From NCBI GenBank assembly GCA_964492335.1, contig CAZBJX010000003.1:26919-90918 (forward strand): DNA of 64,000 bases, read 5' to 3'. The position numbers and the translations under genes were made by a program. Each line of letters starts with the position of its first letter. Within the stretch, counting starts at the first letter, position 1. The notes beneath the pieces were generated by a model that saw only the letters and a program-made list of their open reading frames with translations, was not told where the DNA came from and did not search any database. Shown here in pieces: positions 6,750 to 55,771 of the stretch. This stretch comes from an uncultured Dehalococcoidia bacterium. Lineage in GTDB: Bacteria; Chloroflexota; Dehalococcoidia; UBA2247; RBG-13-53-26.

Positions 6750-6762
6750 GTACTCCTCCTTC

Positions 6763-9487: not shown

Positions 9488-9659
9488 GTGTCGCCTGTGG
9501 GGCCGCCGGGTGGAGCCGCAAGCTATTGTAGCATGGGCCACACACCGGGGCAATCGCGGCTGCGGCCTGTTCTCCGGGGGCGGTTGGCCCTGGCTTCCAG
9601 GGGCTGGCCGCAGGGCATGGGACGGGCGGCAGCGCGGGGCCCGGGGCAGCCGCCCCGGG

Positions 9660-10108: not shown

Positions 10109-10309
10109 AGTGGGGCTGGTGCCGGGTATCCGCGGGTCCGGGGGGGAAGGCCTCCGGCGGGGCGCCGGGCCGCGAGTGCCCGGGCCGTCCGCGCGCCCGG
10201 GGGGGAAGACGGCTTGCAGGGATGCTGACAAATTGTCGCATGCGTCCCACGGGCCGTGCGCGCGCCCCGGGGGGGAAGATGGCCGGGGGCGCCTTGGGGC
10301 GCCCCCGGT

Positions 10310-11894: not shown

Positions 11895-11924
11895 TTGAAA
11901 AGCGCGCTCGGTTTCCATTATAAT
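11895..11924 (+). promoter_or_regulatory. sigma70-like promoter of aspS (TTGAAA-18-TATAAT)
   Basis: TTGAAA 11895-11900, 18-nt spacer, TATAAT 11919-11924; GAGG RBS at 11937-40. Confidence 0.55.
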
Positions 11925-11948
11925 CCTTCCGAGAGCAAGAGGAAAACT

Positions 11949-24786: not shown

Positions 24787-26001
24787 TTACCCCGTTTGGC
24801 CCCGGGTTATCAAGTGGTGGGCGACCACCAGGAAGGCGGCCAGGGCGAAGGGGATGGGGCTGATGACGTAGTAGTAGGTGGCGGCGGCCAGGTGCGGGGC
24901 CCCCACGGGCGCGCTCTCCAGCAGGCCCACTGCCAGGGTGGCGATGCAGGCCAGGACCACGCCGATGCCCAGCCCGTAGGCGGGGTGGCTGCGGGGAGAG
25001 GTGATGATCCCGATGGACAGCCTGGCGCCGATGACCAGGGCCAGGGCCAGGGCCAGCGCTCCGAGGACGCCGGTGTCGCAGTAGAGCTCCAGGTAGGCGT
25101 TGTGCGGGTGGGAGACCTCCCAGAAATCGGGAGCGTTCCACAGGTCCATCCGGCCATAGTACGCCCGGGCCCAGCAGCCCAGGCCCAGGCCGGTCCACGG
25201 GGCCCCGGCCACCGGCGACGCCGAGAGCAGGTCCACGGTGTCGCGCCACAGCTCCAGCCTGCCGGAGTTGCCATCCTGGCCGGAGATGCTCTGCCCCGAG
25301 ACCAGGCTCAGCAGCGAGTCTTTGGTGATGGCCAGGACGACGATGACGGTGGCGGCTGACACCAGGGCCATCAGCACCCTGGTCCTGCCCCGCGTGCCGA
25401 AGCAGGCCACCCCGAAGAGGATGGCCGCGGCCACGGCCAGCATCATGGCCATGCCGTGGTTGGTGTCCTTGCTGGCGGACTCGGGGCCCCACTGGTTGTA
25501 CACGTGCGGGTTCCCGGTGAGGATGAGCAGCAGGACGATGGCGAGTCCCGCCACCAGCAGCACCACCAGCACCTTCATCCAGAAGGCGGGGCGGCTGTCG
25601 CTGGTGAGGACGCAGCAGGCGATGAGCGTCGCCAGGAGGCACTGGAAGGCCCCCAGGCTCATGGTCCGCTCCGGCGAGACGCAGAGGCCGACGAAGGCCC
25701 CCAGGACCAGCAGGGCCGCGGGTATATCGAAGGGTGTCCGGGAGACCATCGCCTGGCCGCTCAGGTACCTGGCGGGGAAGGGCAGGCAGGCCAGGGCCAG
25801 GGCGGCCCAGGTCAGGGCCGGGCTCCAGTGCATCAGGTAGGAGGCATAGACCAGGATGCCCCAGAGGATGCTCCAGGGCGGGGCGGCCGCCGCCACCGCG
25901 CCGGCGGCCCTGGACAGCCAGGCCGGGGCGGGGTCCGCCCGGCGGGGGGCGGGTGATGGCGGGGGATGGGGCGCACCGGGGGGGCCTGGAGCGGATTGCA
26001 T
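24787..26001 (-). CDS. O-antigen ligase (Wzy_C) family membrane protein
   Basis: 404 aa polytopic; periplasmic-loop motif WEVSHPHNAYLELYCDTGVLGAL matches O-antigen ligase/polymerase domain; Pro-rich N-terminus. Confidence 0.65.
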   Translation of the reverse strand: MQSAPGPPGAPHPPPSPAPRRADPAPAWLSRAAGAVAAAAPPWSILWGILVYASYLMHWSPALTWAALALACLPFPARYLSGQAMVSRTPFDIPAALLVLGAFVGLCVSPERTMSLGAFQCLLATLIACCVLTSDSRPAFWMKVLVVLLVAGLAIVLLLILTGNPHVYNQWGPESASKDTNHGMAMMLAVAAAILFGVACFGTRGRTRVLMALVSAATVIVVLAITKDSLLSLVSGQSISGQDGNSGRLELWRDTVDLLSASPVAGAPWTGLGLGCWARAYYGRMDLWNAPDFWEVSHPHNAYLELYCDTGVLGALALALALVIGARLSIGIITSPRSHPAYGLGIGVVLACIATLAVGLLESAPVGAPHLAAATYYYVISPIPFALAAFLVVAHHLITRGQTG

Positions 26002-26145
26002 GATCGTGATGTACCATCATATTATGGCGCCCGGGCCATTGCAAACGGGCCCGGGCCGCCGGGGCCTTTGCCCGCGGCCGGGGCCGGCCCTATAATGGGT
26101 GCTCGATGCCATGAGTGGAGCAATGTGCAGACCGGGCCAGGGCGC

Positions 26146-27522
26146 ATGATGCCCGGCCGCCTCTTTCGCGGCCTGGCCCAGGCGTACCGCGACCCGCTGC
26201 GCCGCAACTCCACCTACCTCATGGCCACCCACGGGGTGATCGGCCTCTTCGGCTTCTTCTTCTGGAAGATCGCCGATATGCAGTACGGCACCCCCGCCGT
26301 CAGCCAGGCGACTACCCTGGTGTCCGCCGTGCTGCTGCTGCATGTGCTGTCCCGCCTGGGCCTGGACATCGCCCTGATCCGCTTCCTGCCGGGGGAGGAG
26401 GACAAGCCGGGGATGATCAACACAGCGTTCACCATCGTGGGGCTGGGATCCGGGATGCTGGCCGTGGCGGTGATCGCGGGAGTGGGGATATGGGCCCCCC
26501 CGTCCTCCGAGCTCCACGTGGTGGCCGACAACCTGGGCTACTCCTTCCTCTTCGTGGTCTTCACCGTGGCCTCCAGCCTGGCGGGGCTCATGCGGCAGGG
26601 GGTGTTCGTGGCCGGGCGCAGCACCCAGTCTTCGCTGGCCATTGAGGTGGTGGCGGGGGTGAGGCTGCTCCTGCTGCCGGCCCTGATCGCCCTGGGGGCC
26701 GTCGGCATCTTCGTCTCCTGGGGCCTGGCGGGCATGGCCTCCCTGGCGGTAGGCATGGGGCTGGTGGTCATCTTCCAGAGGGACTACCGCCCGGTCCTCA
26801 ATATCCGCCGCGGCGTGGTGGGCCGGATGGTGCGGTTCTCCGCGGGCAACTACGTCGCCGAGACCCTGCGGGAGATGCCCGGCTTCCTGCTGCCCCTCAT
26901 CGTCTCCTTCGTGTTCGCCGGCGCCGTCTCCTCGGGGCAGGCCTCCTCCATGACCGCCTACTTCTACATCTCCTGGACCATAGCCAGCGGGATCATGATG
27001 ATCGCCCATGCCACCGGCTCCTCGCTGCTTGCGGAGGGCGCGCTGGACCCGCGGCGCTTCGGCGCCACCTCGCTGCGGGCCTTGCAGTTCATGTTGCTGC
27101 TGCTGGCGGCGGGCATAGCGGCGGTGTTCCTGCTGGGCCGCCCGCTGCTGTCCTGGTTCGACGGGGGCCGGGGCATGTACGCCGAGAAGGGGCTGTGGCT
27201 GCTGCGGCTCCTGAGCCTCTCGGGGGTGCCCATTGCCATCAACACCATCTACGTCACCTACCAGAGGATGCAGCGCCGGCTGGCGCCGGTGGTCGGGGTG
27301 TACGGGTTTGTGGCCGTCTTCACCATCGGGGTGGGATGGGCCCTGCTGAGGCGGATGGAGCTCACCGGGATCGGCCTGGCCTGGCTGGCCAGCAACAGCG
27401 CGGCGGCCCTGGTGGCCGGCGGCCTGATGACCTCGGGCTGGCTGCGGGCGCGCCGCAAGAGGCGTCAGGGCGGTGAGCGCCCCGGGCCCCCTCAGGGGAG
27501 CGGGGCGGCCAGCACCTCGTAG
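26146..27522 (+). CDS. polysaccharide/oligosaccharide flippase (Wzx-like, MOP superfamily)
   Basis: Start MMPGRLFRGLAQAYRDPLRRNSTYLMATHGVIGLFGFFFW; ~12-14 TM, typical Wzx organisation. Divergent from the ligase-like gene. Confidence 0.65.
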   Translation: MMPGRLFRGLAQAYRDPLRRNSTYLMATHGVIGLFGFFFWKIADMQYGTPAVSQATTLVSAVLLLHVLSRLGLDIALIRFLPGEEDKPGMINTAFTIVGLGSGMLAVAVIAGVGIWAPPSSELHVVADNLGYSFLFVVFTVASSLAGLMRQGVFVAGRSTQSSLAIEVVAGVRLLLLPALIALGAVGIFVSWGLAGMASLAVGMGLVVIFQRDYRPVLNIRRGVVGRMVRFSAGNYVAETLREMPGFLLPLIVSFVFAGAVSSGQASSMTAYFYISWTIASGIMMIAHATGSSLLAEGALDPRRFGATSLRALQFMLLLLAAGIAAVFLLGRPLLSWFDGGRGMYAEKGLWLLRLLSLSGVPIAINTIYVTYQRMQRRLAPVVGVYGFVAVFTIGVGWALLRRMELTGIGLAWLASNSAAALVAGGLMTSGWLRARRKRRQGGERPGPPQGSGAASTS

Positions 27523-27549: not shown

Positions 27550-29847
27550 CTACACGGCCGCCGCCACCGCCAGCACCTCGTAGATGCGGACGTCGCCCTC
27601 GGCGTGGACGAACCTGTAGTAGGGGCAGGCGTCCAGCCACTCCTGCAGACCCGGCGGCATGTCGCTCCACATGGGCGAGCCCGGCCTGAAGTCGACGGCC
27701 AGGTAGTCTATGCCGTGTTCCCTGAGGAGCCGGGGGACCTCGAAGGCCGAGACCTGCTCGCTGGCGGGCGGGGGGGTGGTGGCGGAGAAGTCGAAGGACA
27801 GGGTGATGGTCGCAGTGGCGCTGACGACGTCGAAGGTCAGGGGGACGCCGTCGTCTGATGGCCGGCCGGGTGCCCGGAGGATGGCTCCTTGGCACTGCAC
27901 CAGGAGGGTGGTGGTTACCGGGACCACCCCGTCGAAGGGCGTCTTCAGCTCCTGCACCACCTCGATGCGCCCGTCCGGCAGGAAGGCCGGGGTCCGGACC
28001 GGCTCATAACAGAGAAGGAGCGGTATCTCCAGCCCGGTTACGGCCTGATGGCCGCTGTGGATGAAGCAGGTGATGACCGCTGACCCGCTGCCCTCGTCCA
28101 GCGTGGCCGTGGTGACTATGGCGGCATCGTCCAGGCGGTAGGTGGTCACCATCTGCATCCGGGAGCCGTCTCCGTCCAGGCTGAACTCCGGGCGGGGCAG
28201 CTGGTCCAGGCGGAGTGCTCCGCTCCCCTCGACCTGGACGGTGCTCCGGTGGTCGTCGAACATGAGAAGGTCCTGGTACCGGCCCCCGACGTAGGACCCG
28301 ATGACCGGGTTGCCGGGCAGGTCCGTGTACGGGTAGGAGGTGGCCAGCCTCACCCGTCCGTTGCTGAGGCCGCGGTTGCGGGACAGGACCAGCTCCGCCA
28401 CTAAGGAGCGCTGCTTCTCCATGGTGTTGGCCTCCATGTTCCTCTCGGTCACCTCGTAGGTCGCGCGGTGGCCGATGCCCTGTATCCACCACCCCAGGTT
28501 CTCCGGGTAGGCGGCCACGGTGGCCTCCCCGGGCGTGCTCTGCTTGATCCACTGCACCGCGGCCAGGCGGTCGCCGTCCAGGTAGGAGTAGTAGTCCAGC
28601 CCCTGGCGGAGCTCCATCTGCGACGCGACGGCCATGGAGGTGATGAGGGACAGCACGATGACCGCCGCGGCCAGCGCGGGGATGCGGCGGCGCAGGCCCC
28701 GCAGGGCCGCCGGCCGCCACGACCAGAGGAGCGATAGCGCGAATGCGGCGCTGGCCCAGAGGGGGACGTACAGGAAGTACTGGGCGCGGCGGTTCAGCTC
28801 GACGAACGGCGGCGGGAGCGTGAAAACGGTAAGGGCCAGCGAGAAGGCCAGCAGGGCCCCCAGCAGGATGGCCATGCCCCTGTCGTAGCGCTGCAGCCAT
28901 ACCAGGCTGCCCGCGGCCAGGGCCAGCGCCGGGACCATGAGCCACACCGACCCCGTGAGCCCGATGCCCGACGCGAACAGCAGGAAGGGGGCGGCCGACA
29001 TGCCGGCTTCGCCCCCCTGTGAAGACTGCATGTCCAGCAGGTGAAGGTAGACCGGGAGGTAAGGCAGGCTGAGGAGGACGGCCAGGACCAGGGCGGCCGT
29101 GAAGGGCCGCACGCTCCGTCGCAGCCGGTCACGGTCCAGCAGCACCAGACCGAGGACCAGGACTGCCAGGAGGGGCACGAAGAAAGCGGCCGTCAACTGG
29201 TGGAAGCCCAGCACGAGGGAGGCGCACAGGCCCGCCAGGATGACATTGTGCCTGGCGGGTGAGTCCAGTATGGAAACGAAGAAGTAAGCCGCCAGCATGG
29301 TGAAGAAGAGGCCGAACATGGTTATGTAGCCCCAGGAGAGCATCTTGGCATACGCCGGCGTGAGCACGAAGAGGACGGTGGCCGCCACGGCCATCCATGG
29401 GTGTGACATGCGGCGGACGATGAGGTAGAAGGGCAGGCCGATGGCCACCGAGACCAGCACGCCCAGCAGCCTGGCGCCGGTCAGGTCCCCGAAGACGAGG
29501 GCCAGCGCCTTCAGCGGAAGGGCGATGAGAGGGGGCCGCAGGAGCCCGGTCCCGGCAACGTCGTTTCCGAAGAACGTGTTCATGGTGCTCAGGTAGTTGG
29601 CGATATCCGGCCCCATGTCGATGTGCTGGCGCACGGCCAGGTACCTGGCAATGGCGATGGCGGCCAGCGCCGCCAGGAGGACTATCAGGGGCAGGCGGCG
29701 CCTGAGGTTGTCCGGCGGGGTGCCGGCCGGCCCGGCGGCCTGGCCGGGCCCCGGCAGCTTCAGTTCCGGCGGGGGTGACAGCGCCCCGGCGGCCCTCCGC
29801 CGGAGGCGGAGGAAGACGGGCGTATCATCGGGCATCGGAGGCTCCAT
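27550..29847 (-). CDS. GT-C fold glycosyltransferase, ArnT/PMT-like (polyprenyl-phosphate-sugar dependent), with large C-terminal extracytoplasmic domain
   Basis: 765 aa; N-terminal ~11 TM with LRPPLIALPLKALALVFGDLTGARLLGVL (cf. ArnT/GT83 KPPL.YW...lfG.ne.a.Rl). ~330-aa soluble C-terminal domain. Confidence 0.6.
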   Translation of the reverse strand: MEPPMPDDTPVFLRLRRRAAGALSPPPELKLPGPGQAAGPAGTPPDNLRRRLPLIVLLAALAAIAIARYLAVRQHIDMGPDIANYLSTMNTFFGNDVAGTGLLRPPLIALPLKALALVFGDLTGARLLGVLVSVAIGLPFYLIVRRMSHPWMAVAATVLFVLTPAYAKMLSWGYITMFGLFFTMLAAYFFVSILDSPARHNVILAGLCASLVLGFHQLTAAFFVPLLAVLVLGLVLLDRDRLRRSVRPFTAALVLAVLLSLPYLPVYLHLLDMQSSQGGEAGMSAAPFLLFASGIGLTGSVWLMVPALALAAGSLVWLQRYDRGMAILLGALLAFSLALTVFTLPPPFVELNRRAQYFLYVPLWASAAFALSLLWSWRPAALRGLRRRIPALAAAVIVLSLITSMAVASQMELRQGLDYYSYLDGDRLAAVQWIKQSTPGEATVAAYPENLGWWIQGIGHRATYEVTERNMEANTMEKQRSLVAELVLSRNRGLSNGRVRLATSYPYTDLPGNPVIGSYVGGRYQDLLMFDDHRSTVQVEGSGALRLDQLPRPEFSLDGDGSRMQMVTTYRLDDAAIVTTATLDEGSGSAVITCFIHSGHQAVTGLEIPLLLCYEPVRTPAFLPDGRIEVVQELKTPFDGVVPVTTTLLVQCQGAILRAPGRPSDDGVPLTFDVVSATATITLSFDFSATTPPPASEQVSAFEVPRLLREHGIDYLAVDFRPGSPMWSDMPPGLQEWLDACPYYRFVHAEGDVRIYEVLAVAAAV

Positions 29848-29851: not shown

Positions 29852-30973
29852 TCAGCCCAGGGCCTTACGGTAGGCCGCCTCGGCCTGATCGGCTATGCGG
29901 TCCCAGTCGTAGGCGGCGGCCAGCTCCCGGCATCCCTTCTCCCAGTCGGACCGGCCCAGGGCCTGCCGGACCCTGTCCGCCACGTCCTCCGGCGAGAGGC
30001 TGCAGACGTAGCCGTTGCGCCCGTCGGCGATCAGGTCCTGCGCCGCGTTCTGGGGGTGATTGACGGTGACCACCGGTATGCCGCAGGCGTTGGCCTCCAG
30101 CACCACGTGGCTGAACCCCTCCCGCACGGATGGCTGGACCAGGACCCGGGAGGCCTTCATATGGGAGTAGACCCCGGCGTCGCTGTCCACCGGGCCCAGG
30201 AAGCGGACGCTACCGGAGATGCCCATCTCGCGGGCCAGCAGCTCCAGCCGCTGCCTGTCCGGTCCCTGCCCGATGATGATGCAGCCCGTCTCCTGCCCCC
30301 GCTCCTTCAGGACGGCCGCAGCCTGGAGGAGCAGGGCGACGTTCTTCTCCCGGGCCAGGCGGCCGGCGAAGATGATGCCGTTGGGCTCCGGCCACACGGG
30401 GGCCGCCTCGATGGCGGCGATGTCGATGCCGCAGCCTACGGTGGCCGCCGGCCGGCAACCCAGCTTCTCCAGCCTCTTGCCGGTGTGGGGCGAGATGGCG
30501 ACAGCCCGCTGCGGCAGGCGGGCCGCCAGGCGCTCGACGGCCCTGCCCAGCGCGCCCTTCCTTCCCAGGTACTCGTACCAGTAGCCGTCCCACACCTCGT
30601 GCCAGGTGATTACCAGCCGGGAGCGCCTGGCCAGGGTGGAGAACCAGGCCGCGAAGCAGGGGAAATAGGGGAAATTGGCCACCTCCACCACGTCGAACCT
30701 CTCCTTCATCAGGGGTGGCAGCACCCTGACGGCGAAGTAGAGGGCCCCCTTGATGGAGCGGCGGCCTTCGGTGAAGAGGGGCTGCGGCGGGCAGACGCCC
30801 CGGAAGCGGACCCCTTCCCGGTGCATGACGCTGCCGCCCTCCCAGTACTTCATGCCGAAGATGGTCACCTGGTGGCCCTTCCTGACCAGGCGCCGGCCGA
30901 TCTCCCAGTTGCGCTTCTGCACTCCTCCGGCCACATAGGGGTGGACGACGTCGTATACCAGGGCCAGCTTCAC
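29852..30973 (-). CDS. glycosyltransferase family 4
   Basis: Likely GTG start at VKLALVYDVVHPYVAGGVQ (4-nt overlap with upstream GT2). GT-B fold with C-terminal EGFSHVVLEANACGIPVV motif. Confidence 0.8.
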   Translation of the reverse strand: MKLALVYDVVHPYVAGGVQKRNWEIGRRLVRKGHQVTIFGMKYWEGGSVMHREGVRFRGVCPPQPLFTEGRRSIKGALYFAVRVLPPLMKERFDVVEVANFPYFPCFAAWFSTLARRSRLVITWHEVWDGYWYEYLGRKGALGRAVERLAARLPQRAVAISPHTGKRLEKLGCRPAATVGCGIDIAAIEAAPVWPEPNGIIFAGRLAREKNVALLLQAAAVLKERGQETGCIIIGQGPDRQRLELLAREMGISGSVRFLGPVDSDAGVYSHMKASRVLVQPSVREGFSHVVLEANACGIPVVTVNHPQNAAQDLIADGRNGYVCSLSPEDVADRVRQALGRSDWEKGCRELAAAYDWDRIADQAEAAYRKALG

Positions 30974-31677
30974 CGGACCACCCTCTTCTTGGCGATGTGC
31001 AGCAGGTCGATGAGGCCCACCTTCCAGGCGTTGGACAGCTTGGTCCGGCCGACACGGGCCCGGTACTCTATAGGCACCTCCTTCCAGCGGCACCCGCTGT
31101 AGTAGCAGGCCTCTATCTTGATCTCGTGGGACAGCGGCCACGAGTCTGAGTGCAGCCTGAGCCGGGGCAGGAGGTCCTTCCGGAAGAGCCACATGCCGGA
31201 CTCGGCATCGGCCAGGTCCAGGCCGAAGAGGGCCCGGGTGGCCAGGGACAGCACCCGGTTGCCGGCCCGGTTCAGGGCCGGCATGGCGGCCCGGTCCAGG
31301 GAGGCGAAGCGGTTGGTGGTGAGGAAGTCCAGGCCCTCGCGGTCCAGGGTCTCCAGCAGCGACGGGATGGCCTCCAGGGGATAGGTGGCGTCGGCGTCCG
31401 CGGTCACGATCACGCTTCCGGCCGCGGAGGCGAAGCCCTTCTTCAGGGCGCTGCCGTAGCCGCGCACCGGCTGCGGCACCACGTCCGCCCCGGCCTGCCG
31501 GGCCAGCTGCGCGGTCCGGTCCGTCGAGCCGTTGTCCACCACCAGCACCTGCACCCCGTAGCCCAGAGCCTGTATGGCTTCCCGGGGGACGGCCCTGATG
31601 GTCTGCTCGATGCCCTGCTCCTCGTTGAGGGCGGGGATCACGATGGTCAGGAGTCTGGTGTCCGTCATCCTGTGCAT
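30970..31677 (-). CDS. glycosyltransferase family 2 (DPM1/polyprenyl-phosphate glycosyltransferase-like)
   Basis: LTIVIPALNEEQGIEQT...VVDNGSTDRT...VTADADATYP (DXD). Confidence 0.8.
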   Translation of the reverse strand: MHRMTDTRLLTIVIPALNEEQGIEQTIRAVPREAIQALGYGVQVLVVDNGSTDRTAQLARQAGADVVPQPVRGYGSALKKGFASAAGSVIVTADADATYPLEAIPSLLETLDREGLDFLTTNRFASLDRAAMPALNRAGNRVLSLATRALFGLDLADAESGMWLFRKDLLPRLRLHSDSWPLSHEIKIEACYYSGCRWKEVPIEYRARVGRTKLSNAWKVGLIDLLHIAKKRVVR

Positions 31678-31730
31678 GCGGCCGAAAGCCGGCAATGATG
31701 CCCTATCTTAGCCCGAAAGGCGCCGGCAGG

Positions 31731-31848: not shown

Positions 31849-33513
31849 TCACCCGGCGTGCTTCCCGCGGCGGGCCAGCAGTAAGGCGCCGGCGGCCGCG
31901 GCGAGGAAGGCCCCGCCGGCTGCGCCGGCGCCCACCCAGCCCCAGGGTGTGAGGCGGCTGGGGGCTGCGGCCACCTCGAAGGCCCCGGGCAGGGTGCCGC
32001 TGCCCCCCGGTGCCACAACCGTGGCGTCGCGCCACCTGAGGGCGGCCTCCGGGGCGATGAAGATGCTGGCGGTTATCCGGTTGTGGTCGTGCACCTTGAA
32101 GTCGTCCACCGTGATGCCTTCACCGAAATCCAGGGAGATGGCCTCGGCCAGGTAGCGGCCGATGGCGGTGAACCAGACCCTCTCACCTCTTCGCGCCCGG
32201 GTGAAATCCACCGACAGCAGGACCGGCGGGGCGGGCTCGACCGTGAAGGCGGAGCGCAGGGTAGCACTGCCGCCCTCCGTCTTCAGCGCTATGTCCCTCG
32301 GCCCCGGCCCGGCGGTCTGGCCGACCTCGATGGAGGCCGTCAGCAGGCTGGCGCTTTCGATGACCAGGCCTTCCACCGAGATGCCCTCCCCGAAGCTGAC
32401 CACGGAGGTGGTGTCGAGATTCGTGCCGGCAATGGCTATCGACGCCGAATCCCCCTGGGCGGCCCGGGTGGCGGATATCTGCTGGATGGCAGGCGGCCGC
32501 GACTGCAGGATGGTCCCGTCATCGCCCACGGCGAACACATCGCCCCCCGGGCTGCTCCAGACGCCGTAGAGGTCCTTTCCCGCGCTCCAGGCGCTCCAGG
32601 CGCTCCAGGCCCCGCCGTCCCAGTGGAGGTTGCCGCCGCTGCCCACCGCGTATACGTCGGATGGCGAGCGGCCCCAGACGGCGTTGAGGGACACGGGGGA
32701 GATGCCATCCGGCAGGGGCACGCCGGTCCAGCCCTGGCCATCGTAGCGGGTGATGCAGCCACCGCCCACCGCAATCACGTTTGAGGCTGAGCCTGCCCAG
32801 ACACCGGTCAGGCCGCAATCGTCGATGCCGTGCTTTGTGGTCCAGGCATCACCGTCATAGTGCCGGACGTAGCCTGCCAGCGACGGGCACGGGGACGCTG
32901 CCGCCACGGGGCACACCGGGTGCCGGTCGGTGCCGGCGGCGTAGACGTCCGTGGAGGTGGTGCCGCAGACCGATTTCAGGTCGATGCTTGTATCGCTGAC
33001 CATGGCGGCCCAGGCGGTGCCGTTGCAGTGCAGGATGCTGCCATTGTCCCCCACGGCGAAGACGTCCGAGGAAGTGGCCCCCCAAACCCCGTTCAGGGTC
33101 TCGGCTGTGCCCGATGTCATCGCGGTCCAGGCGGCGCCGTCGTAGTGCAGGATGGTCCCGCCGGTGCCGACGGCGTAAACGTTGTCCGCGGAAGTTCCCC
33201 AGACGCCATTGAGTGTTCTCGTGGTGCCCGACGCCATCCCGGTCCAGGCGGCGCCGTCGTAGTGCAGGATGGTGCCGCCTGAGCCGACGGCGAACAGGTC
33301 GGACGACGAGGTGCCCCACAGGGCCAGCAGCCGGGCTGCAGTGCCGCTGGCCATGGGCCGCCAGGCGGCCAGGCTGTCGCCGGCCCTCACGGCCGGGGGA
33401 GAGGCGGCCAGGGCCAGGCAGGCCGCCAGGACCAGGCAGGCCGCCAGGGACAGGAGCAGCGTCCCCGGGACGGGGGCCGGTCTCCGGCGCTTCATCAGGT
33501 CCAATGTCCTCAT
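31849..33513 (-). CDS. secreted 7-bladed beta-propeller repeat protein (Ycf48/BNR-like repeats) with C-terminal W-rich motif + TM anchor
   Basis: Signal peptide MRTLDLMKRRRPAPVPGTLLLSLAACLVLAACLALAA. About 7 repeats of L.GVWG.S.SDV.AVG..GTILHYDG.AWT.M.SGT. C-terminal Ig-like region then PWGWVGAGAAGGAFLAAAAGALLLARRGKHAG. Confidence 0.7.
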   Translation of the reverse strand: MRTLDLMKRRRPAPVPGTLLLSLAACLVLAACLALAASPPAVRAGDSLAAWRPMASGTAARLLALWGTSSSDLFAVGSGGTILHYDGAAWTGMASGTTRTLNGVWGTSADNVYAVGTGGTILHYDGAAWTAMTSGTAETLNGVWGATSSDVFAVGDNGSILHCNGTAWAAMVSDTSIDLKSVCGTTSTDVYAAGTDRHPVCPVAAASPCPSLAGYVRHYDGDAWTTKHGIDDCGLTGVWAGSASNVIAVGGGCITRYDGQGWTGVPLPDGISPVSLNAVWGRSPSDVYAVGSGGNLHWDGGAWSAWSAWSAGKDLYGVWSSPGGDVFAVGDDGTILQSRPPAIQQISATRAAQGDSASIAIAGTNLDTTSVVSFGEGISVEGLVIESASLLTASIEVGQTAGPGPRDIALKTEGGSATLRSAFTVEPAPPVLLSVDFTRARRGERVWFTAIGRYLAEAISLDFGEGITVDDFKVHDHNRITASIFIAPEAALRWRDATVVAPGGSGTLPGAFEVAAAPSRLTPWGWVGAGAAGGAFLAAAAGALLLARRGKHAG

Positions 33514-33533
33514 ATGGTCGGCCCCGAGGCCGG

Positions 33534-35429
33534 CTACCGCCGGCCCAGGCTGTACCCCGCGATGGCGGAGATGGAGACCAGGGCCAGCGCACCCGCCGCG
33601 CCCAGGAGGCCCCAGGCCCACCCCGGGAATGGGGAACGCCCGGCGCCGCCCCCCCTGGCGACGATGGCCCACCGACTGAAGTGGCTGGTGGAGGCCATCA
33701 GAGTCTGACCCTCCGCATCCACCGTGGTATCGGCCACTACCCACTTGCCGGCCACCGCGTCAAGGTAGCACAGGGCGAGGTTGCCCGGTTCTCCCTTCGC
33801 TGCGTCCAGGTCGCTGTCGGAGTACCTGGCCCATATGGTCACTTCCCGGTTAAGCTGGTCCGGGCCCTCGATGTCGAAGAAGGTATCCGCGGAACGGTAG
33901 CCGGACACGCCCTGGAGGGGATCATCCCCGGTCCCCTCCGCAATCACCAGGGTGAAGGCCCGGCCGGCGGCGCCGGCGGGGATGTGGAGGGTGATGGCCC
34001 CGTCGCTGGTCTGGATGATGGCGGGGTTGTCGGCGCCCACCGTGGTCCAGGCCAGCGCGTCCATGACCAGCACGCATGCTCTCTTGATCCTGGTGTCGGA
34101 CCCGGACCTGCCCGTGACCGTCAGGGTCACCGTATAGGCCCCCGTTTCCTCGTAAGTGAACGAGGGGTTCCGCTCGGTGCTGTCCGTGATGTCGTCGCCG
34201 TCAAGGTCCCATTCCCAGGTGAGAATGTCCCCCAGGGAGCGGTCCTCGAACCGGACTTCGAGCGGGGCCAGCCCCGCGGCCCGGGCAGCCGCGAAATCCG
34301 CCTTGACCCCCATGATGGTCATCAGCGGGCAGCCGTCCGAGGCCCCGTAGACCCCGGTGTACGGCAGGTGCGTGTCACCGATCCCGTCGCCGGCGGCCCT
34401 GCCGCCGGTGCCGTCGTCCAATCCGGTGTAGTCGCTCCAGTAGTTCCCCACGATGCCGGAGTACTTCTGTCCCTGGTATGCGTAGTAGATGGGCTGCGGC
34501 GACACCCAGGAGTTGGCGACCTCGTTGCCGGCCACGACGTTACCCAGGGCATTGTCCGACAGGGTGTTGAGGTACACCGCGTGGCCCCCGGTCAGCCCCG
34601 CCATGTCGATCCCGTAGCGACCGTTGTTGGAGATGGTGTTGGAGGCGATGGTGTTTCCGGGGTTGCCGGCAATGAGTATCCCGTTGCCCCGGTTATCGTT
34701 GAAGGCGTTGTTCATGATGGTGATCCGGGCGGTCATGCTCCGGAGTGCTATGCCGTGCTCGCCGTTGGAGCTGCAGGCATTGTCCATGACGCTGCTGTTG
34801 TACGTATCGATCATGCAGATCCCGGTCTGCACAGAGGAGCAGATGACATTGCGGCGGATGAGCCAGTCGTCGCAGCCCTCCACGTAGACTCCGTGCAGGT
34901 TACGGTGCTGGGGGTCCCAGCCGATGCGACAGTCCTCGATCACCGAGCCGCTGGAGTGCGTGGCCAGCACCCCCGCCCTCTGGCTGTACCCCGGCGTCAT
35001 CATCTCTGCCGGGGCGTCCGCACCGTAGATGTCCAGGTTCTTGAGGATGACCCCGTCGGCATAGGATATCTCGAATACCGGCGCCAGCGGGCTCTTGGCC
35101 CTCACCTGGGGCCTGGCGCCCGCCTGGTCGTAGCTGGTTATGGTGACGGGCTTGTCGATCAACACGTTCTCGACGTAGTCATCGGTCTCCTCGTTGTTGT
35201 CATCCGCCAGCCGTATCGTGTCCCCGGGGTCGACCCGGGAGACCGCGTGGGAGATGGTCCGCCACGGGTTGCCCTCGCTGCCCGTCCCCCTTATGTTGCT
35301 TCCCAGGTAGCTGACGTAGTAGGTATTGCCGGCTGCCCGGGCCGGGGCCGGCGCGGCGGAGATGGAGGACATGGCGGCGGCACCGGCGAGCGCCACCAGC
35401 ATCAGGAGCGCCAGGCCCTTCCTAATCAT
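33534..35429 (-). CDS. secreted right-handed parallel beta-helix (pectin-lyase fold) + PKD-domain protein with C-terminal W-rich motif + TM anchor
   Basis: Signal peptide MIRKGLALLMLVALAGAAA. NosD-like PbH1 repeats (GI.L..S....I..N.I..N...GI). PKD domain PLEVRFEDRSLGDILTWEWDLDGD...YTVTLTVTG. C-terminus FPGWAWGLLGAAGALALVSISAIAGYSLGRR. Confidence 0.7.
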   Translation of the reverse strand: MIRKGLALLMLVALAGAAAMSSISAAPAPARAAGNTYYVSYLGSNIRGTGSEGNPWRTISHAVSRVDPGDTIRLADDNNEETDDYVENVLIDKPVTITSYDQAGARPQVRAKSPLAPVFEISYADGVILKNLDIYGADAPAEMMTPGYSQRAGVLATHSSGSVIEDCRIGWDPQHRNLHGVYVEGCDDWLIRRNVICSSVQTGICMIDTYNSSVMDNACSSNGEHGIALRSMTARITIMNNAFNDNRGNGILIAGNPGNTIASNTISNNGRYGIDMAGLTGGHAVYLNTLSDNALGNVVAGNEVANSWVSPQPIYYAYQGQKYSGIVGNYWSDYTGLDDGTGGRAAGDGIGDTHLPYTGVYGASDGCPLMTIMGVKADFAAARAAGLAPLEVRFEDRSLGDILTWEWDLDGDDITDSTERNPSFTYEETGAYTVTLTVTGRSGSDTRIKRACVLVMDALAWTTVGADNPAIIQTSDGAITLHIPAGAAGRAFTLVIAEGTGDDPLQGVSGYRSADTFFDIEGPDQLNREVTIWARYSDSDLDAAKGEPGNLALCYLDAVAGKWVVADTTVDAEGQTLMASTSHFSRWAIVARGGGAGRSPFPGWAWGLLGAAGALALVSISAIAGYSLGRR

Positions 35430-38031
35430 CTTGACCCTCCTTCATGAAGTGATGCCATTTTAGCACAGGGCCGCGGTCCTTCGACCGCATGCGACGGGCC
35501 CGGAGCGCCAGGAGCAGGGCGGCGGACGCCAGGAGCAGCAACAGGCTGGCCCCGCTGAGGATGCATCCGGCGGCCCGCAGGGGGGAAGGGGTGTACTCCA
35601 GGACCACGTCGTACTCCCCGGCGGGGAGGTCGAAGCCGTTGATGCACTCGAAGCACGCAGAGGCCGGCACGCAGGCTCCCCCGGCTGTCGCCGTCCAACC
35701 TGGGTGATAGGATTCGCTGAGGACCAGGCGGAACGGCGACGGCTGGTCCACGTGTACCGAGTACCTCCCGCTGCCGGTGTGGCGGTACTCCAGGCCGGTA
35801 TCGATGGCGGCTGACATCACGGCCACCCGGTCGAACCAGAGGGTGAAATCGCCGGGCATGTCCCCCCCGGCCCGCTCCCGGATGCCGAACCGGACCTCGG
35901 TGGTCCTGCCCGGGTCAATGGCGGGGCCTCCATCCGCCGGGTCCCGTCGAAGCAGGAGCCGGAGCGGGATCTCAACGTCGTTCCATCCGGCTGCGATGCC
36001 ATCGGCGATTCGCAGATCCATGCCGTAGCGGCTACCGTCGGCCTCCAGGGCATCGATGGTGATGCAGGCGCCTGCGATGGCCTGCTCGCTGTAGAAGCCC
36101 AGGCAGATGCAATCATCGCCGTCCATCGCCATGTGGCTGACATCAACGCCCAGGGATGCCCACTGCTCACCGGCCCCGGTGCACCGGAAGCGCGCCGCCA
36201 GGGAGGGGGCCGCAGAACGGGTCCGGGCCTCATCCAGGGACAACGTGACGGCCAGGCCCAGCCCCGCGCCGGCCAGCCTCACGCCGTCGGGCGGCAGTTC
36301 CCGCCTGTCGGAATAGCTGACCGCGAAGGCCCGGGGCATGCAGGCCGGCGACTCGTAGATGTCGAGGGACTCGCCCGACCAGGCCAGGGAGTAGCCCCGG
36401 CCCGGCCCGATGGGGCCGGCATCTGCTCCCGCCCGGTGGCGCACCACGTATCTGACGCCGAAGAGCCTGAGCCATTCGTCCAGGCTGGCCCCCTGGTCCC
36501 GGCTGCTGCTGAGGAAGTCCAGGATGTCGGCAGTGCAGGCCAGGGCGGTCGCGGGGACGCCTCCGTAGACGCAGGCCTTGTCGTGCAGCCAGGTCCAGCA
36601 GATGGGGTTGATCACCCAGCGCCCTTCGGCGGTGAGGGACCAGGTGGACAATGGGAGGTCGGTGATGCGGTAGTCCCCGTCCTCCTGCTCCTCGAGCCAT
36701 TGGCAGGCGCTCTGCTGCTCGGGTGTCAGGGTGAAGGTGCTCAGGGCCTCCCTCGTCTCCCGCCAGGTGTTGGCCAGCAGGAGCAGGACGGCGAGCACGA
36801 GGAAGCATGCTGCGGCGGCGCCGGCGCGGGGGGGGCGAAGGGAGAGCCCCCGCAGCCGCCGCACAGCGGCGCCGACGAAGAAGCCGATCAGGACGGCGTA
36901 GCTCAGGCTGCCGAAAAGGAGGAAGCGCCACGGAGTCCTCAGGCCGTCGAAGAAGGGGACCAGCCGGTAGGCCAGGCTGAAGAGCTTGACGGGCGAATCC
37001 GGGCCCATGGACAGGAGGACGGCCACGGCCAGGGAGCCGCAGAAGAACCAGACGTGCCACCGACGGCGGTCCAGCAGCATCGCCCCGAGGACCATGACGA
37101 AGGGGGCCGCGCGGAGCGTTTCGGTGAGGGCACTGCCGGAGGCCCCGAAGGCGCTGCCCGGGGCGCAGCAGAAGGCCGGCCGGAGGGTGATCGCCTGGCA
37201 GAAGGTGGCGCTGAAGCCCCTTGCATCCTCCAGGGGGAAGGCGGTGGCGGCGAAATACCGCAGGTCGTCAATCAGGGGCAGCCACCAGAAGGCGGTCAGC
37301 AGGAGCGAGAGCCCGACGGCCCCCGCGGTGGCGGCCGAAACGGTCTTGAGGTACCCGCCGCCTCTCCGCCTCTCCCGCAGCGCACCCACCATGGCGTAGA
37401 GCACGTAGAAGGGCCCCACCAGGATGGGAAAGACCTGGGGGTAGGTGAGGACCAGCGCGGCCAGCAGCAGTGCATTGAGCAGGATGTACCCCGGGCCGGG
37501 CTTCCGGAGCAGCCTCTCCAGGGCCAGGAAGAGCAGCGGGGCGAGCATATAGGGCAGCCCGAAGGCCCCGTGATGGCCTTCGAAGGCGACCTCGAGGACG
37601 TGGTAGGGCAGGAACACGTAGGCCAGGCCGGCGGCGAAGCCGGCGACGCGGCTTCTGGTCAGCTCATATACGTACAGGTAGGCGAAGGTGCCGGAGAGCA
37701 CCCAGAAGCACAGGTAGACCAGCTTGAGACCGGCTGTCCAGCCCATGGCGCAGCTGAGGGCCCTGATGAGGAAGCTGACCAGGGGCGCATGCACGTAGAA
37801 GAGCGGTGTCCCCAGGTACCAGTTGCCGGACCAGCCCGACAGCAGCCCCTGCAGCGAGACGGTATGGGCGGATGAGTATGCCATGAGGGCGTCCGCCAGG
37901 GTGTCGTGACCGTTCGGGACCCCCGGGTTGAACCAGCCCCGGGCTGCCAGCAGGGTGATGGCGGCGATGAGGACCAGGTCCCAGCGCTTGTGGGAGGCCA
38001 GGTGGTCCCAGGCCCGGCGGAGCGCGGTCAT
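35422..38031 (-). CDS. large polytopic membrane protein, YfhO-like putative GT-C glycosyltransferase (paralog 1)
   Basis: 869 aa; ~14 TM N-terminal region, extracytoplasmic C-terminal domain, terminal TM + RR. Weak similarity to the downstream YfhO paralog. Confidence 0.55.
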   Translation of the reverse strand: MTALRRAWDHLASHKRWDLVLIAAITLLAARGWFNPGVPNGHDTLADALMAYSSAHTVSLQGLLSGWSGNWYLGTPLFYVHAPLVSFLIRALSCAMGWTAGLKLVYLCFWVLSGTFAYLYVYELTRSRVAGFAAGLAYVFLPYHVLEVAFEGHHGAFGLPYMLAPLLFLALERLLRKPGPGYILLNALLLAALVLTYPQVFPILVGPFYVLYAMVGALRERRRGGGYLKTVSAATAGAVGLSLLLTAFWWLPLIDDLRYFAATAFPLEDARGFSATFCQAITLRPAFCCAPGSAFGASGSALTETLRAAPFVMVLGAMLLDRRRWHVWFFCGSLAVAVLLSMGPDSPVKLFSLAYRLVPFFDGLRTPWRFLLFGSLSYAVLIGFFVGAAVRRLRGLSLRPPRAGAAAACFLVLAVLLLLANTWRETREALSTFTLTPEQQSACQWLEEQEDGDYRITDLPLSTWSLTAEGRWVINPICWTWLHDKACVYGGVPATALACTADILDFLSSSRDQGASLDEWLRLFGVRYVVRHRAGADAGPIGPGRGYSLAWSGESLDIYESPACMPRAFAVSYSDRRELPPDGVRLAGAGLGLAVTLSLDEARTRSAAPSLAARFRCTGAGEQWASLGVDVSHMAMDGDDCICLGFYSEQAIAGACITIDALEADGSRYGMDLRIADGIAAGWNDVEIPLRLLLRRDPADGGPAIDPGRTTEVRFGIRERAGGDMPGDFTLWFDRVAVMSAAIDTGLEYRHTGSGRYSVHVDQPSPFRLVLSESYHPGWTATAGGACVPASACFECINGFDLPAGEYDVVLEYTPSPLRAAGCILSGASLLLLLASAALLLALRARRMRSKDRGPVLKWHHFMKEGQDD

Positions 38032-38273
38032 TCCCTGTGCCTGCGCCGGCGGATACTGTCTGCCAGCAACAGCGCGGCGCCCGCCAGGAGGAAGTAGAAG
38101 GCGCAGAAGGCCAGGCGGTCCGACAGGCCGCGCAGTGGCCAGGTCACGGCGCTGAGAAGGAGAAGCCCGAAGGCGGCCAGGATGGGGCCGCGAGGCTCCC
38201 AGCGGTGCCGCACCGCCAGGGCGCAGTACAGGGCTATCAGGGCCGGCGGGACCAGGTCAAAGACGTAATTCAT
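38028..38273 (-). CDS. small membrane protein (2 TM)
   Basis: 81 aa, two hydrophobic helices; 4-nt overlaps with both flanking YfhO-like genes suggest translational coupling. Confidence 0.45.
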   Translation of the reverse strand: MNYVFDLVPPALIALYCALAVRHRWEPRGPILAAFGLLLLSAVTWPLRGLSDRLAFCAFYFLLAGAALLLADSIRRRRHRE

Positions 38274-38280: not shown

Positions 38281-40608
38281 CTACTTCCCGGCCCCGGCCA
38301 CCAGGCTTGTCACCGAGGGGTAATCGAATACGAACTCGATGTGGTGCTGGCCGCCGGTGACATACGCTCCGGCCAGGACCCCGTTGACCCGCAGCAGGCC
38401 GGACCGCTGGCCGTCGATGTACACCTTCCACCACGGGTTGTGGAAGTAGCAGAGGGAAACGATGCCGTTCCCGCCTGCGTCTACGTCGAAGGACAGCCCG
38501 CGGGCCGTTATCGTGTACCCGCTGATGCGGGTCTCCGGGAGGGCTGTCTGCTGCCCTCGCGTCTTCATGAGACGGGGAATATCGCTGTACCGGGACCACT
38601 GGAAGGAGGGGTCGGTGATGGAGGCCACGTCTCCCCAGACCGCGGCCACGCTGCTCTGGAAGTAGTCGGTGCTGAAGTGTCGCTTCAGTCCGCTCCAGGA
38701 GCGGAAGAGATACAGGGAGATGAAGGGGTCCTCGCTGGGTATGAAGATGGTCGAGTCCATCGAGTAGAACCGGACCTCCTCCGGTGACTTCTTCACTTCG
38801 TAGAGGTAGATCCTGTAGTAGTCGTTGTCCAGGACCCCCCGGAAGATGAGGGGGTCGGCCGGACCGTTGGAGAGCGCGGACAGCTGCTCTATCTTGTCCC
38901 GGTGGTAGTCCGTCATGGTCTCCGGGGCCGGGGGGAGCTTCCCCCATATGACTGCGTAGTAGTCGATGGCCAGCAGGTTCGAGTAGTAGGCCAGATGGTC
39001 CTCGTCCCTGACCAGGCGCTCCTCCATGGCGTGGGAGAAGGTGGTGACCTCCGTGGTCTGGTTCCAGGGAAGAGAAGTGGAAGCCATCTCTACCAGGCGC
39101 ACCTCCCCATTCATATCGAAGACGCCGGTGCAGTACTCCGCCTGGACGCCGAGGCTGGGGTAGAACTGTATGCGGACATTGCCCTCGGTCCCGGCTATGG
39201 AGTCCAGGACGTAGTGCTGCCACTGGTCGAACTGGTCCCTCTCGACGATCCGTTGGTGGTAGAAACCGAAGTAGGGCGAGAAGTCCAACACCATGACCAG
39301 CACCAGCACGGCCGGGATCAGGCGGCCCGGCCGCAGCCGGCCGGCAGAGAAGCGCCGGGGGCCGCGCCACCGCAGGGACCTGGCAGACTGGCAGGCCAGG
39401 GCGAAGACCACCGGCAGGCAGAGAGCGAAGCAGTAGTAGAACCGGAGTGTGACCCGCATTCCTTTGAGGACCGGCACGGCCTGCCTCAGGATGGGGAAGA
39501 GCGGGCCGTAGATGCCCATTGACAGGAGCAGGAAAGCCAGTGAAGCCGCCACGAAGAAGAGGAGCCTGGCGGCATGGCGACGGTTCTTCTCCAGACTTAC
39601 CAGGAGGACCGCCCCCAGCAGGATAGCGAAGGCGATGGGCCCCGAGTAGTGCTCGGCGTGCGGCATGGTCCAGGTGTCCATGGCCGAATACGCCCTGGAT
39701 CCGAAGGTCTGCATGAAGTTGTGGAAGGTGAAGTAGCGCAGGCCCGCCCCTATCTCCTCGGCAGTCAGGCCGCTGAAGTAGTCGTATTCCCGGATCACCG
39801 TGACATAGAAGGAGAACGGGACCAGCAGGAGCAGGGCGGTGAGCAGGACCCACAGCTTGTTGGCCCGGGCGATGGAGAGGAGCTGCCGGGGACCTGTTCT
39901 CCTGGCCCACAGGGAGAGCAGGGCGTAGGGGATGTAGAACAACAGGAAGATGACCGCATACTCGATCTGGCTGAGCAGGACGAAGGTGATGCAGACGGCC
40001 AGCAGGAACAGGGCGAGCCCCGATCTCCTTTTGAGGAAGAGGTCCGTCAGCAGAAGGATCAACGGCATGATGGCATAGGCGCCCAGTATCTCGAAGAGCC
40101 CCCAGAACATCATGGACTGGGTATGGACCGGCAGCACGATGTAGATCACCGCGCCCAGGAAGGCCGTCAGCGCATCTGCCGTGAGGTGTTTCAGGTAGAA
40201 GTACATGGACAGCCCGGCCAGGGCGAACAGGCCTATCAGCGCGATGTTGTAGGCGACAGCGGTGGAACTGGTGACCAGGTAGAGGGGAAGCATCGCGTAG
40301 AACACCCCCGGCGGCACCATGCCGAAGAAGGGCATGCCCCCCATCCACAGCGGGCTCCACGTGGGCAGCTGATGGAAGGTGACCACGGACTCCTTGAACC
40401 AGTCGAGCCAGGCCGCGCTCATGGTGATGTCTCCGAACGTGGTCTGGCCGAGGTTCAGAAGGGGCCTGGTGAGGTACAGGGAGATGGCTGTCAGCAGGAG
40501 GACGGCCAGGATATCGCTTCTGTATCGGCGCAGGGTCCGGACCACGCGGGAACACAGCCGCTCCGGTGCCCGCGCTGTCTGACCTGCTTCATGGTGCTCT
40601 CGGCTCAT
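38281..40608 (-). CDS. YfhO family membrane protein (putative polyprenyl-phosphate-sugar-dependent glycosyltransferase, paralog 2)
   Basis: 775 aa; multi-TM N-domain, C-terminal beta-rich domain ending YFHNPWWKVYIDGQRSGLLRVNGVLAGAYVTGGQHHIEFVFDYPS, characteristic of YfhO C-termini. Confidence 0.65.
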   Translation of the reverse strand: MSREHHEAGQTARAPERLCSRVVRTLRRYRSDILAVLLLTAISLYLTRPLLNLGQTTFGDITMSAAWLDWFKESVVTFHQLPTWSPLWMGGMPFFGMVPPGVFYAMLPLYLVTSSTAVAYNIALIGLFALAGLSMYFYLKHLTADALTAFLGAVIYIVLPVHTQSMMFWGLFEILGAYAIMPLILLLTDLFLKRRSGLALFLLAVCITFVLLSQIEYAVIFLLFYIPYALLSLWARRTGPRQLLSIARANKLWVLLTALLLLVPFSFYVTVIREYDYFSGLTAEEIGAGLRYFTFHNFMQTFGSRAYSAMDTWTMPHAEHYSGPIAFAILLGAVLLVSLEKNRRHAARLLFFVAASLAFLLLSMGIYGPLFPILRQAVPVLKGMRVTLRFYYCFALCLPVVFALACQSARSLRWRGPRRFSAGRLRPGRLIPAVLVLVMVLDFSPYFGFYHQRIVERDQFDQWQHYVLDSIAGTEGNVRIQFYPSLGVQAEYCTGVFDMNGEVRLVEMASTSLPWNQTTEVTTFSHAMEERLVRDEDHLAYYSNLLAIDYYAVIWGKLPPAPETMTDYHRDKIEQLSALSNGPADPLIFRGVLDNDYYRIYLYEVKKSPEEVRFYSMDSTIFIPSEDPFISLYLFRSWSGLKRHFSTDYFQSSVAAVWGDVASITDPSFQWSRYSDIPRLMKTRGQQTALPETRISGYTITARGLSFDVDAGGNGIVSLCYFHNPWWKVYIDGQRSGLLRVNGVLAGAYVTGGQHHIEFVFDYPSVTSLVAGAGK

Positions 40609-55759: not shown

Positions 55760-55771
55760 GGAGAGATAACG

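Follow-up and report, generated by a model that had tools for sequence, protein, structure and literature searches.

Two adjacent secreted proteins encoded in a stretch of 64,000 nucleotides (nt) from an uncultured Dehalococcoidia bacterium (contig CAZBJX010000003.1, positions 26,919 to 90,918; hereafter, the window) end in similar C-terminal tails, in which a pair of tryptophans caps a Gly/Ala-rich transmembrane (TM) helix followed by a short basic end. An earlier note, based on the sequence of the window, had put these tails forward as a candidate new sorting or anchoring motif. Part of that proposal stands, since the layout is common to both proteins, is absent from current catalogues and recurs in related genomes. 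The reading of the tail as a sorting signal does not fare as well, because the motif is variable and is not specific to the C-terminus. On balance, we consider it probable that the tail is an ordinary, permanent type I membrane anchor common to a local gene family, and not a sortase-type sorting signal; the tail of these two proteins, here termed A and B, is most likely a new, lineage-typical stop-transfer anchor capped by Trp.

A shared Trp-capped tail in two neighboring proteins

Protein A (31849-33513, minus strand; 554 amino acids [aa]) terminates in PWGWVGAGAAGGAFLAAAAGALLLARRGKHAG and protein B (33534-35429, minus strand; 631 aa) in PGWAWGLLGAAGALALVSISAIAGYSLGRR. The open reading frames (ORFs) and C-terminal sequences of the two proteins agree exactly with those previously quoted, and the Trp-rich motif, TM helix and Arg-Arg tail attributed to them are present in each. 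In A, P523 and W524-G-W526 cap a 24-residue Gly/Ala-rich helix (W524-A547; 31873..31947, minus strand), and the predicted cytoplasmic end is the basic RRGKHAG (31852..31872, minus strand). In B, P602-G-W604-A-W606 caps a 26-residue helix (W604-G629; 33543..33626, minus strand), with Tyr626 near its inner edge and a predicted cytoplasmic Arg-Arg end (33537..33542, minus strand). The distance from the first Trp to the first Arg is hence 24 residues in A and 26 in B. The tripartite layout of short motif, hydrophobic helix and basic end is real in both sequences and, for A, is backed by the helix seen in an AlphaFold2 (AF2) model. That helix (residues 523-550) starts at P523-W524, so that W-x-W forms its first turn and lies inside the helix rather than ahead of it as a separate motif. 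The wording P-x-W-x-W-G given in the earlier note holds for the W-x-W core, which is common to both tails, and for B (P-G-W-A-W-G), where Pro stands at -2, but not literally for A (P-W-G-W-V-G), where Pro stands at -1.

Trp makes up 1.4% of the predicted proteome of the window, and W-x-W is found at the boundary of 3 of its 83 hydrophobic segments, two of the three being those of A and B. Given this rarity, the resemblance between the two tails is not due to chance. No other ORF in the 64-kb window ends in such a tail.

To judge from their sequences, both proteins have the attributes of a simple type I anchor: a Sec-type signal peptide and a C-terminal helix of sufficient length to cross the bilayer, with a basic end and Trp/Tyr flanks. 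They resemble documented anchors of this type in combining a signal peptide with a single C-terminal helix of 20-26 residues, flanked by Trp on the outside and Tyr or Phe on the inside, and followed by cytoplasmic Arg/Lys residues (PMC5525207). They differ from them in that the doubled Trp after Pro is unusually regular in this operon and lineage, and in that the helix is unusually rich in Gly and Ala.

Comparison with known sorting domains

Tripartite sorting domains comprise a motif, a TM segment and a basic cluster at or near the C-terminus, and in PEP-CTERM, PGF-CTERM and GlyGly-CTERM the motif and the TM segment are not separated by a spacer (10.1101/2023.06.07.544157). NCBIfam release 20 was scanned at E<=10, the queries being both the full-length proteins and their tails alone. 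The sole sorting-domain match of the A tail was to GVDTG_CTERM, at 13.4 bits against a cut-off of 29, and the B tail had no match at E<=10. Synthetic control tails for LPXTG, PEP-CTERM, PGF-CTERM, GlyGly-CTERM, MYXO-CTERM and WGxxGxxG-CTERM were all recovered above their own cut-offs (6/6), which makes the negative result for A and B meaningful and upholds the earlier observation that the tail fits no named signal.

Several of these domains nonetheless share features with the two tails. B contains a literal WGLLGAAG ahead of a hydrophobic stretch and RR, as in WGxxGxxG-CTERM, and A contains WGWVGAG. Neither protein, however, reaches either model of this domain (NF038039 and NF041742) at E<=10, whereas the synthetic WGWLGLLGLLGLAGLRRR control scored 35-42 bits over the two models, including 35.3 bits for NF038039, which has a cut-off of 24 bits. 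The PGF-CTERM/archaeosortase A and PEP-CTERM/exosortase systems offer a closer parallel in layout, with a Pro-containing motif directly abutting the helix (B reads P-G-W) and an Arg-rich end, and their carriers are likewise surface proteins, whose stalks are often glycosylated and whose genes often neighbor a glycan locus. Here again, the A and B tails fail to match TIGR04126, which rejects membership of PGF-CTERM, or TIGR02595 at E<=10, against 51 and 38 bits for the synthetic controls; the W-x-W of the A/B family is not invariant, and the genes nearby yielded no exosortase or archaeosortase. In common with LPXTG/sortase substrates, A and B have a signal peptide, a C-terminal hydrophobic segment and a basic end in a presumably monoderm bacterium, but they have neither an LPXTG-like pentapeptide nor a hydrophilic spacer, and no sortase (PF04203) was found in the window. 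Both tails score below TIGR01167; the tail of one homologue (P0053) reaches the low cut-off of this model, apparently through its hydrophobic part alone. The A/B tail is hence similar to the PGF-CTERM/PEP-CTERM class in layout only, and lacks three attributes of a sorting domain: a match to a curated model, an invariant motif and the restriction of look-alikes to the C-terminus.

Variability of the tail among homologues

Protein A has more than 4000 homologues. The named best homologues and the leading genome loci are mostly metagenome-assembled genomes (MAGs) of Dehalococcoidia or other Chloroflexota, with other phyla placed lower in both lists; the scan of genome contigs for the A family used a five-sequence alignment, and its best match was ~41% identical. 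Among 60 listed A homologues ending in a TM helix and a basic tail, Trp lies near the helix start in 53, but W-x-W is present in only 17 and P-x-W-x-W in 11, and seven have no Trp at all. Representative tails such as LPFWVWIA, LPLWIWLL, SPWWWVG, LPPWVWVA and MPSWVWAI illustrate the range, and the family as a whole alternates among W-x-W, WW, a single Trp in mid-helix (IALIWxGIA) and no Trp. The same variation is seen within a single genome, as the paralogues of one Dehalococcoidia MAG end in TWIWIVVG, AWIWACAG, RLWLYPVAL and VPLVLFILGG. W524 and W526 are invariant in alignment A1, whose sequences were selected by the motif.

Other aspects of the tail are more regular. The first Trp and the first basic residue are 20-26 residues apart in all 22 tails compared, and in a high-GC subgroup Tyr or Phe precedes the basic cluster by 3-4 residues, as in AGYSLGRR, GLYLLGRRR, AAYILGRS, AAFFLARK, MIYFLVRRK, TLYFLARRR and AVYLTVRR. 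With Trp outside and Tyr/Phe inside, the helix is bracketed by aromatic residues at both interfaces, as in a stable anchor. Such flanking by Trp and Tyr (the aromatic belt) has been reported to be most pronounced where a helix serves solely as an anchor (PMC5525207). The same tail is also found in homologues from Dehalococcoidia MAGs with a G+C content of 51-58%, in unrelated genomic contexts and without GT-C neighbors. The carriers fall into two ectodomain classes only, the propeller family of A and the beta-helix proteins, which are neighbors in one operon. The homologue search with B returned no relative with a comparable tail outside its own 90% cluster, and B therefore contributes no comparative information.

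A profile built from 11 tails and run with HMMER against 1.84 billion representative proteins gave 19 matches at E<=0.001, 14 of them new. In five of these 14, the PxWxW helix lies away from the C-terminus: it is N-terminal in P0172, and in P0166, P0170 and P0176 it is followed by 36-62 further residues, read as cytoplasmic. The remaining case, P0165, is a 472-aa, Cys-rich, eukaryote-like protein made up of three modules of ~140-190 residues, each of which ends in TP[YF]WVWILV, a TM helix and CCC, and it has the appearance of a eukaryotic tandem array or of a fused gene model. The presence of PxWxW at N-terminal, internal and repeated helices indicates that the pattern arises repeatedly as a generic helix boundary. 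A word-index search of the tail alignment against 5.8 billion proteins returned three weak matches and missed its own inputs, the candidates being swamped by low-complexity words.

A contrasting anchor is available in the same strain. On a Logan contig of this strain (L098), ~6 kb beyond the window start, a gene at 5529-6893 (minus strand) encodes a 454-aa protein (…VGVFSILLGVATLLAGLGGLVWAYSRLVEAR…) with a signal peptide, a C-terminal TM helix and a basic end; the helix lacks an outer W-x-W and has its aromatic residues on the inner side.

Syntenic loci

A related genome, GCA_040961035.1, whose elongation factor EF-Tu falls in the same 90% cluster as that of the window, harbors a syntenic locus of ~28 kb (JBFOMV010000005.1:515882-543830; L082/L083) with a G+C content of 63%. 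Its gene order runs from a PTPS-related gene through a small TM protein, a YfhO-like gene, seven secreted proteins, GT2, GT4 and a PMT_2-like gene to an opposite-strand gene, Wzy_C and CitMHS, and its GT2, GT4 and PMT_2-like genes match those of the window in order, at 71-84% identity. Six of the seven secreted proteins are tailed. Five of them are A paralogues, one only 259 aa long, and the sixth is a 482-aa beta-helix protein with marginal similarity to B; the seventh secreted protein is internalin-like, with leucine-rich repeats and without a TM tail. In a Dehalococcoidia MAG (L012), PTPS-related (40% identical) and YfhO-like (52.5%) genes precede an A-family protein ending in RAWIWACAGLG...RRNR, so that the order of a YfhO-like gene followed by a tail protein is kept in three genomes. 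A metagenome scan with the YfhO-like protein located more distant YfhO-like operons, which have no secreted tail proteins at this position. The slot for secreted proteins hence seems to expand and contract: with two genes in the window, seven in the relative and none in distant operons, the surface-protein genes give the impression of an insert in a glycan operon that is specific to the lineage and able to expand.

These data also bear on the alternative raised in the earlier note that the tail might be unique to two paralogous tails produced by local duplication. It is not, as it recurs both in the syntenic locus and in Dehalococcoidia homologues; matching no known CTERM model and recurring in relatives, the tail can be put down neither to a known domain nor to a duplication confined to this pair.

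Search for a processing enzyme

No member of the sortase, exosortase/archaeosortase, rhomboid or CPBP families was found in the window among the genes with a determined family, and the earlier remark that no cognate sortase-like gene is visible there holds for every one of them. Pfam or NCBIfam was run on ~50 predicted genes of the window; the families of the hexapeptide transferase, the second GT2 and DegT were taken from precomputed Pfam annotation of an identical contig, and about eight housekeeping genes were identified from their sequence or from other searches (FabD, trigger factor, two ClpP, TopA, EF-Tu, NusG, L11/L1, ABC ATPase and PCMT). No sorting enzyme is present among the gene families listed for the 28 kb of L082/L083, and the L012 locus was compared only with the genes of the window itself. 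A multi-TM protein (25966-27522, plus strand) was considered as an exosortase candidate and rejected: it has no family match, is 78% identical to its syntenic counterpart and, by sequence character, looks like a Wzx-type flippase.

Domain organization of proteins A and B

The 554 residues of A are counted from the first Met after the stop codon of B, as the mechanical ORF extends to 33744 and would overlap B. A is composed of a signal peptide, a Ycf48-like seven-bladed propeller, two immunoglobulin (Ig)-like/Qn_am_d_aIII domains (PF09099 in Pfam) and the TM tail. The predicted signal peptide (residues 1-44; 33382..33513, minus strand) reads MRTLDLMKRRRPAPVPG-TLLLSLAACLVLAACLALAAS-PPAVRA ahead of GD. 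The propeller spans residues 44-338 (32500..33384, minus strand; AF2 and Foldseek) and the Ig-like beta-sandwich domains residues 342-515 (31969..32490, minus strand; Pfam and AF2), the latter with a weak match to the NCBIfam choice-of-anchor Z repeat. The AF2 model of A, with a mean predicted local distance difference test (pLDDT) score of 85 and values above 90 across residues 50-190, resolves a helix at 18-36, the all-beta propeller at 44-338, the beta-sandwiches at 342-515 and the tail helix. Its top fold match in the PDB is the seven-bladed propeller of Ycf48 (5ojr, 2xbg; Foldseek E 5e-13, template modeling score 0.72 normalized to the target), a predicted resemblance in fold only and not in photosystem-assembly function.

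Protein B, an identical copy of which (P0001) is present in NCBI and Logan, consists of a signal peptide, a NosD-type parallel beta-helix, a PKD domain, a beta-rich region of ~150 aa and the TM tail. The predicted signal peptide covers about residues 1-32 (35334..35429, minus strand), reading MIRKGLALLMLVALAGAAAMSSISAAPAPARA ahead of AG. The NosD/right-handed beta-helix spans residues 125-336 (34422..35057, minus strand; PF05048, 5e-28; PF13229, 2e-19) and the PKD domain residues 386-453 (34071..34274, minus strand; PF18911/PF00801), with all of these matches above gathering score. There is an 8-nt overlap between the start of B and the stop of the YfhO-like gene that precedes it. By hydropathy, A and B have one N-terminal and one C-terminal hydrophobic segment apiece. 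The N-terminal signal peptides ascribed to the two proteins are predicted from a basic n-region, a hydrophobic core and an AxA-like site in each sequence, to which the AF2 helix at 18-36 can be added for A.

Genomic context

The genes for A and B belong to a continuous minus-strand run extending from ~48.8 kb down to 27.5 kb. It begins with two SIS proteins, a HAD phosphatase, a GHMP kinase, an epimerase, GtrA, a GDP-mannose-dehydratase-like protein, DegT, a GT2 and a hexapeptide transferase. It continues with a PTPS-related/YfhO-like GT-C membrane protein (38281-40608), an 81-aa TM protein and the YfhO-like GT-C protein (35422-38031), the order of the two GT-C genes being kept in L082 and L012. 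B and A follow, and then GT2 (30970-31695), GT4 (29852-31192) and a PMT_2/STT3-like GT-C protein (27550-29847), which were assigned by family scan, as was the PTPS-related protein; all of these genes are on the minus strand. The divergent multi-TM gene and then Wzy_C lie beyond the run. Taken together, positions 24787-48822 make up a glycan/glycoprotein island of ~24 kb with three large GT-C-type membrane proteins and a heptose-type set of two SIS proteins, a GHMP kinase and a HAD phosphatase. The 81-aa protein (38028-38273, minus strand), which lies between two GT-C genes, has three hydrophobic segments and matches no family above threshold; a protein of 83 aa occupies the same place in GCA_040961035.1.

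The operon is reminiscent of GT-C glycosylation operons such as Streptococcus mutans Pgf, with PgfM1/PgfM2, and the actinobacterial PMT O-mannosylation systems, in which GT-C proteins are also encoded beside surface-protein genes. As in those operons, YfhO-like, PMT_2-like, polyprenyl-phosphate-sugar-synthase-type GT2, GtrA and sugar-nucleotide genes are found together. Unlike in those operons, the similarity lies far below family cut-offs (20.9 bits against a cut-off of 1500 for the YfhO-like protein and PgfM2; 14.2 bits against 600 for the Wzy_C protein and the O-oligosaccharyltransferase TfpM), the acceptor could be either a protein or a polymer, and the likeness concerns the neighborhood and not the tail.

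Elsewhere in the window, which is bacterial, a class A RNase P RNA is located at 10309-10676. Two genes at 54317-56989 (plus strand), encoding an ACP_syn_III/HMG-CoA-synthase-like protein (480 aa) and a thiolase-like protein (405 aa), lie between L1 (53506-54213) and L10 (57157-57735) and interrupt the usual L11-L1-L10-L7/L12 cluster. A 494-aa ORF (6763-8247, minus strand) carries a HisG (ATP phosphoribosyltransferase) domain only in its C-terminal part, at residues 298-447, with no family assigned to the first 300 residues, and adjoins a HisRS-like gene (8222-9553) that is possibly HisZ. The 98-nt tRNA-Arg(TCG) called by ARAGORN at 12793-12890 (plus strand) is probably a false positive, as it lies within the aspartyl-tRNA synthetase gene aspS (11895-13736) and has no Rfam support.

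Discussion

In the membrane-anchor model favored here, A and B would be exported via Sec, with cleavage of their signal peptides, and the C-terminal helix would act as a stop-transfer sequence that confers a type I topology on the cytoplasmic membrane. Pro would break the preceding chain and the two Trp side chains would sit in the outer lipid-water interface. The Gly/Ala-rich helix of 20-26 residues would then cross the bilayer, Tyr or Phe (Tyr626 in B) would mark the inner interface, and the Arg/Lys cluster would be held in the cytoplasm, in accordance with the positive-inside rule and with no cleavage taking place. The Chloroflexota are generally described as monoderm. We infer this topology and the permanent retention of A and B in the membrane, which would leave a propeller protein and a beta-helix/PKD protein permanently anchored at the surface of a probably monoderm cell. 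The tail would hence be an anchor style typical of the lineage, having spread among paralogous and neighboring surface-protein genes inserted in a cell-surface glycosylation operon, and A and B may be substrates or partners of the glycosylation machinery encoded with them.

One competing explanation is that the tail constitutes a new tripartite sorting signal (PxWxW-CTERM), cleaved after Sec export at or near W-x-W by an exosortase/archaeosortase-, rhombosortase- or CPBP-like enzyme encoded elsewhere, with transfer of the protein to a lipid, a glycan or the wall. Much of the architecture would agree with it. The spacer-less layout is that of PEP-CTERM, PGF-CTERM and GlyGly-CTERM (10.1101/2023.06.07.544157), and the tail stands at the extreme C-terminus of every operon carrier, with several carriers per locus on both propeller and beta-helix ectodomains. 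The Pro just ahead of an aromatic residue is reminiscent of PGF and PEF, low-complexity Thr/Ser/Pro/Asp stalks precede the tail in relatives, the genes reside within a glycan operon, as those of exosortase systems often do, and no existing model covers the tail. Against this explanation stands the variation of the motif among close paralogues, even those of a single genome (W-x-W in 17/60 and no Trp in 7/60), together with its confinement to two ectodomain classes, both in one operon. Furthermore, the same strain has a C-terminal anchor without W-x-W (L098), similar PxWxW helices occupy N-terminal and internal positions in unrelated proteins, and W-x-W lies within the helix and has a Tyr/Phe counterpart at the inner edge, a pairing also seen in stable anchors. 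Neither the 64-kb window nor the families listed for L082/L083 supply a candidate enzyme, distant YfhO-like operons are devoid of tail proteins, and a Trp-less tail of the same family scores as well as B on a tail profile. We therefore regard a sorting signal as unlikely.

A different role for a permanent anchor would be that of a docking or assembly module, in which the W-x-W cap and the small-residue face of the helix would dock the proteins to one another or to the co-encoded GT-C enzymes (YfhO-like, PTPS-related and PMT_2-like), placing the stalks at glycosyltransferase active sites for O-glycosylation or assembling a surface layer. GT-C active sites are located at the membrane interface, and a modification on or beside the interfacial Trp pair is therefore conceivable. 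As far as the genome was sampled, no protein encoded outside this operon carries the tail, the order of a YfhO-like gene and a tail protein is conserved, the start of B overlaps the YfhO-like stop, and Gly/Ala-rich helices are suited to helix packing. The likeness of the YfhO-like protein to the protein-glycosylating PgfM2, and of the Wzy_C protein to TfpM, points in the same direction, but both scores are far below their cut-offs. Moreover, Dehalococcoidia homologues carry the same tail in unrelated contexts without GT-C neighbors, and the more distant YfhO-like operons lack tail proteins, which makes docking possible though rather doubtful. A chance resemblance, or a by-product of high G+C content on two unrelated hydrophobic tails, could be invoked on the grounds that the tails are short and of low complexity, that Gly, Ala, Arg and Trp codons are G+C-rich and that the window has a G+C content of ~68%. 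This is highly improbable, given the rarity of W-x-W at helix boundaries (3/83), its performance in shuffle tests and the recurrence of the cap in six of the seven syntenic proteins at 63% G+C and in Dehalococcoidia MAGs at 51-58%; to judge from the sequences compared, recurrence in relatives effectively refutes it.

Some observations sit less comfortably with a plain anchor. The W-x-W cap is present in both tails of the operon (2/2), as opposed to ~1/81 helices elsewhere in the window, and six of the seven secreted proteins of L082/L083 end in P-x-[W/Y]-x-W, a TM helix and Arg/Lys. The cap also occurs on beta-helix proteins, which have no homology to the propeller family, and a hidden Markov model (HMM) built solely from propeller-family tails scores B at 14.3 bits, above 999 of 1000 segment-wise shuffles. 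In relatives, the tail is preceded by stalks rich in Thr, Ser, Pro and Asp, as it is in substrates of archaeosortases and related enzymes; these stalks would fit O-glycosylated surface proteins. The frequency of the cap, its presence in most syntenic carriers and its occurrence on beta-helix proteins indicate that something beyond generic anchoring keeps it, and it has therefore been kept by common descent, by recombination of tails or by function. On the same HMM, B still scores above 980 of 1000 shuffles in which W-x-W is held fixed, and the Trp-less propeller-family tail P0068 reaches 15.3 bits. Since a tail without Trp scores as well as B, the tails appear to share a style more than a specific signature. 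We thus retain the permanent anchor as the preferred interpretation, and leave a small residual chance to a more specific role linked with the glycosylation operon. That the tail is an uncatalogued targeting element of Chloroflexota surface proteins, whether as the sorting signal of an intramembrane enzyme or as a helix docking to GT-C glycosyltransferases, seems improbable to us.

The envelope of the Chloroflexota is poorly understood, and we know of no sortase- or exosortase-type system described in this phylum for proteins of this kind. Were the tail a sorting signal after all, the sortase/exosortase-type repertoire would gain a new member, in the Chloroflexota. If it is a plain anchor, it counsels caution, in that a signal peptide and a tail made up of a motif, a TM helix and Arg-Arg would not suffice to call a sorting signal, and it would imply that helices capped by Trp emerge time and again as ordinary anchors. 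The locus combines a variable complement of anchored propeller and beta-helix proteins with three GT-C glycosyltransferases, and this association of surface proteins and GT-C enzymes in a single operon makes it a candidate surface-glycoprotein system.

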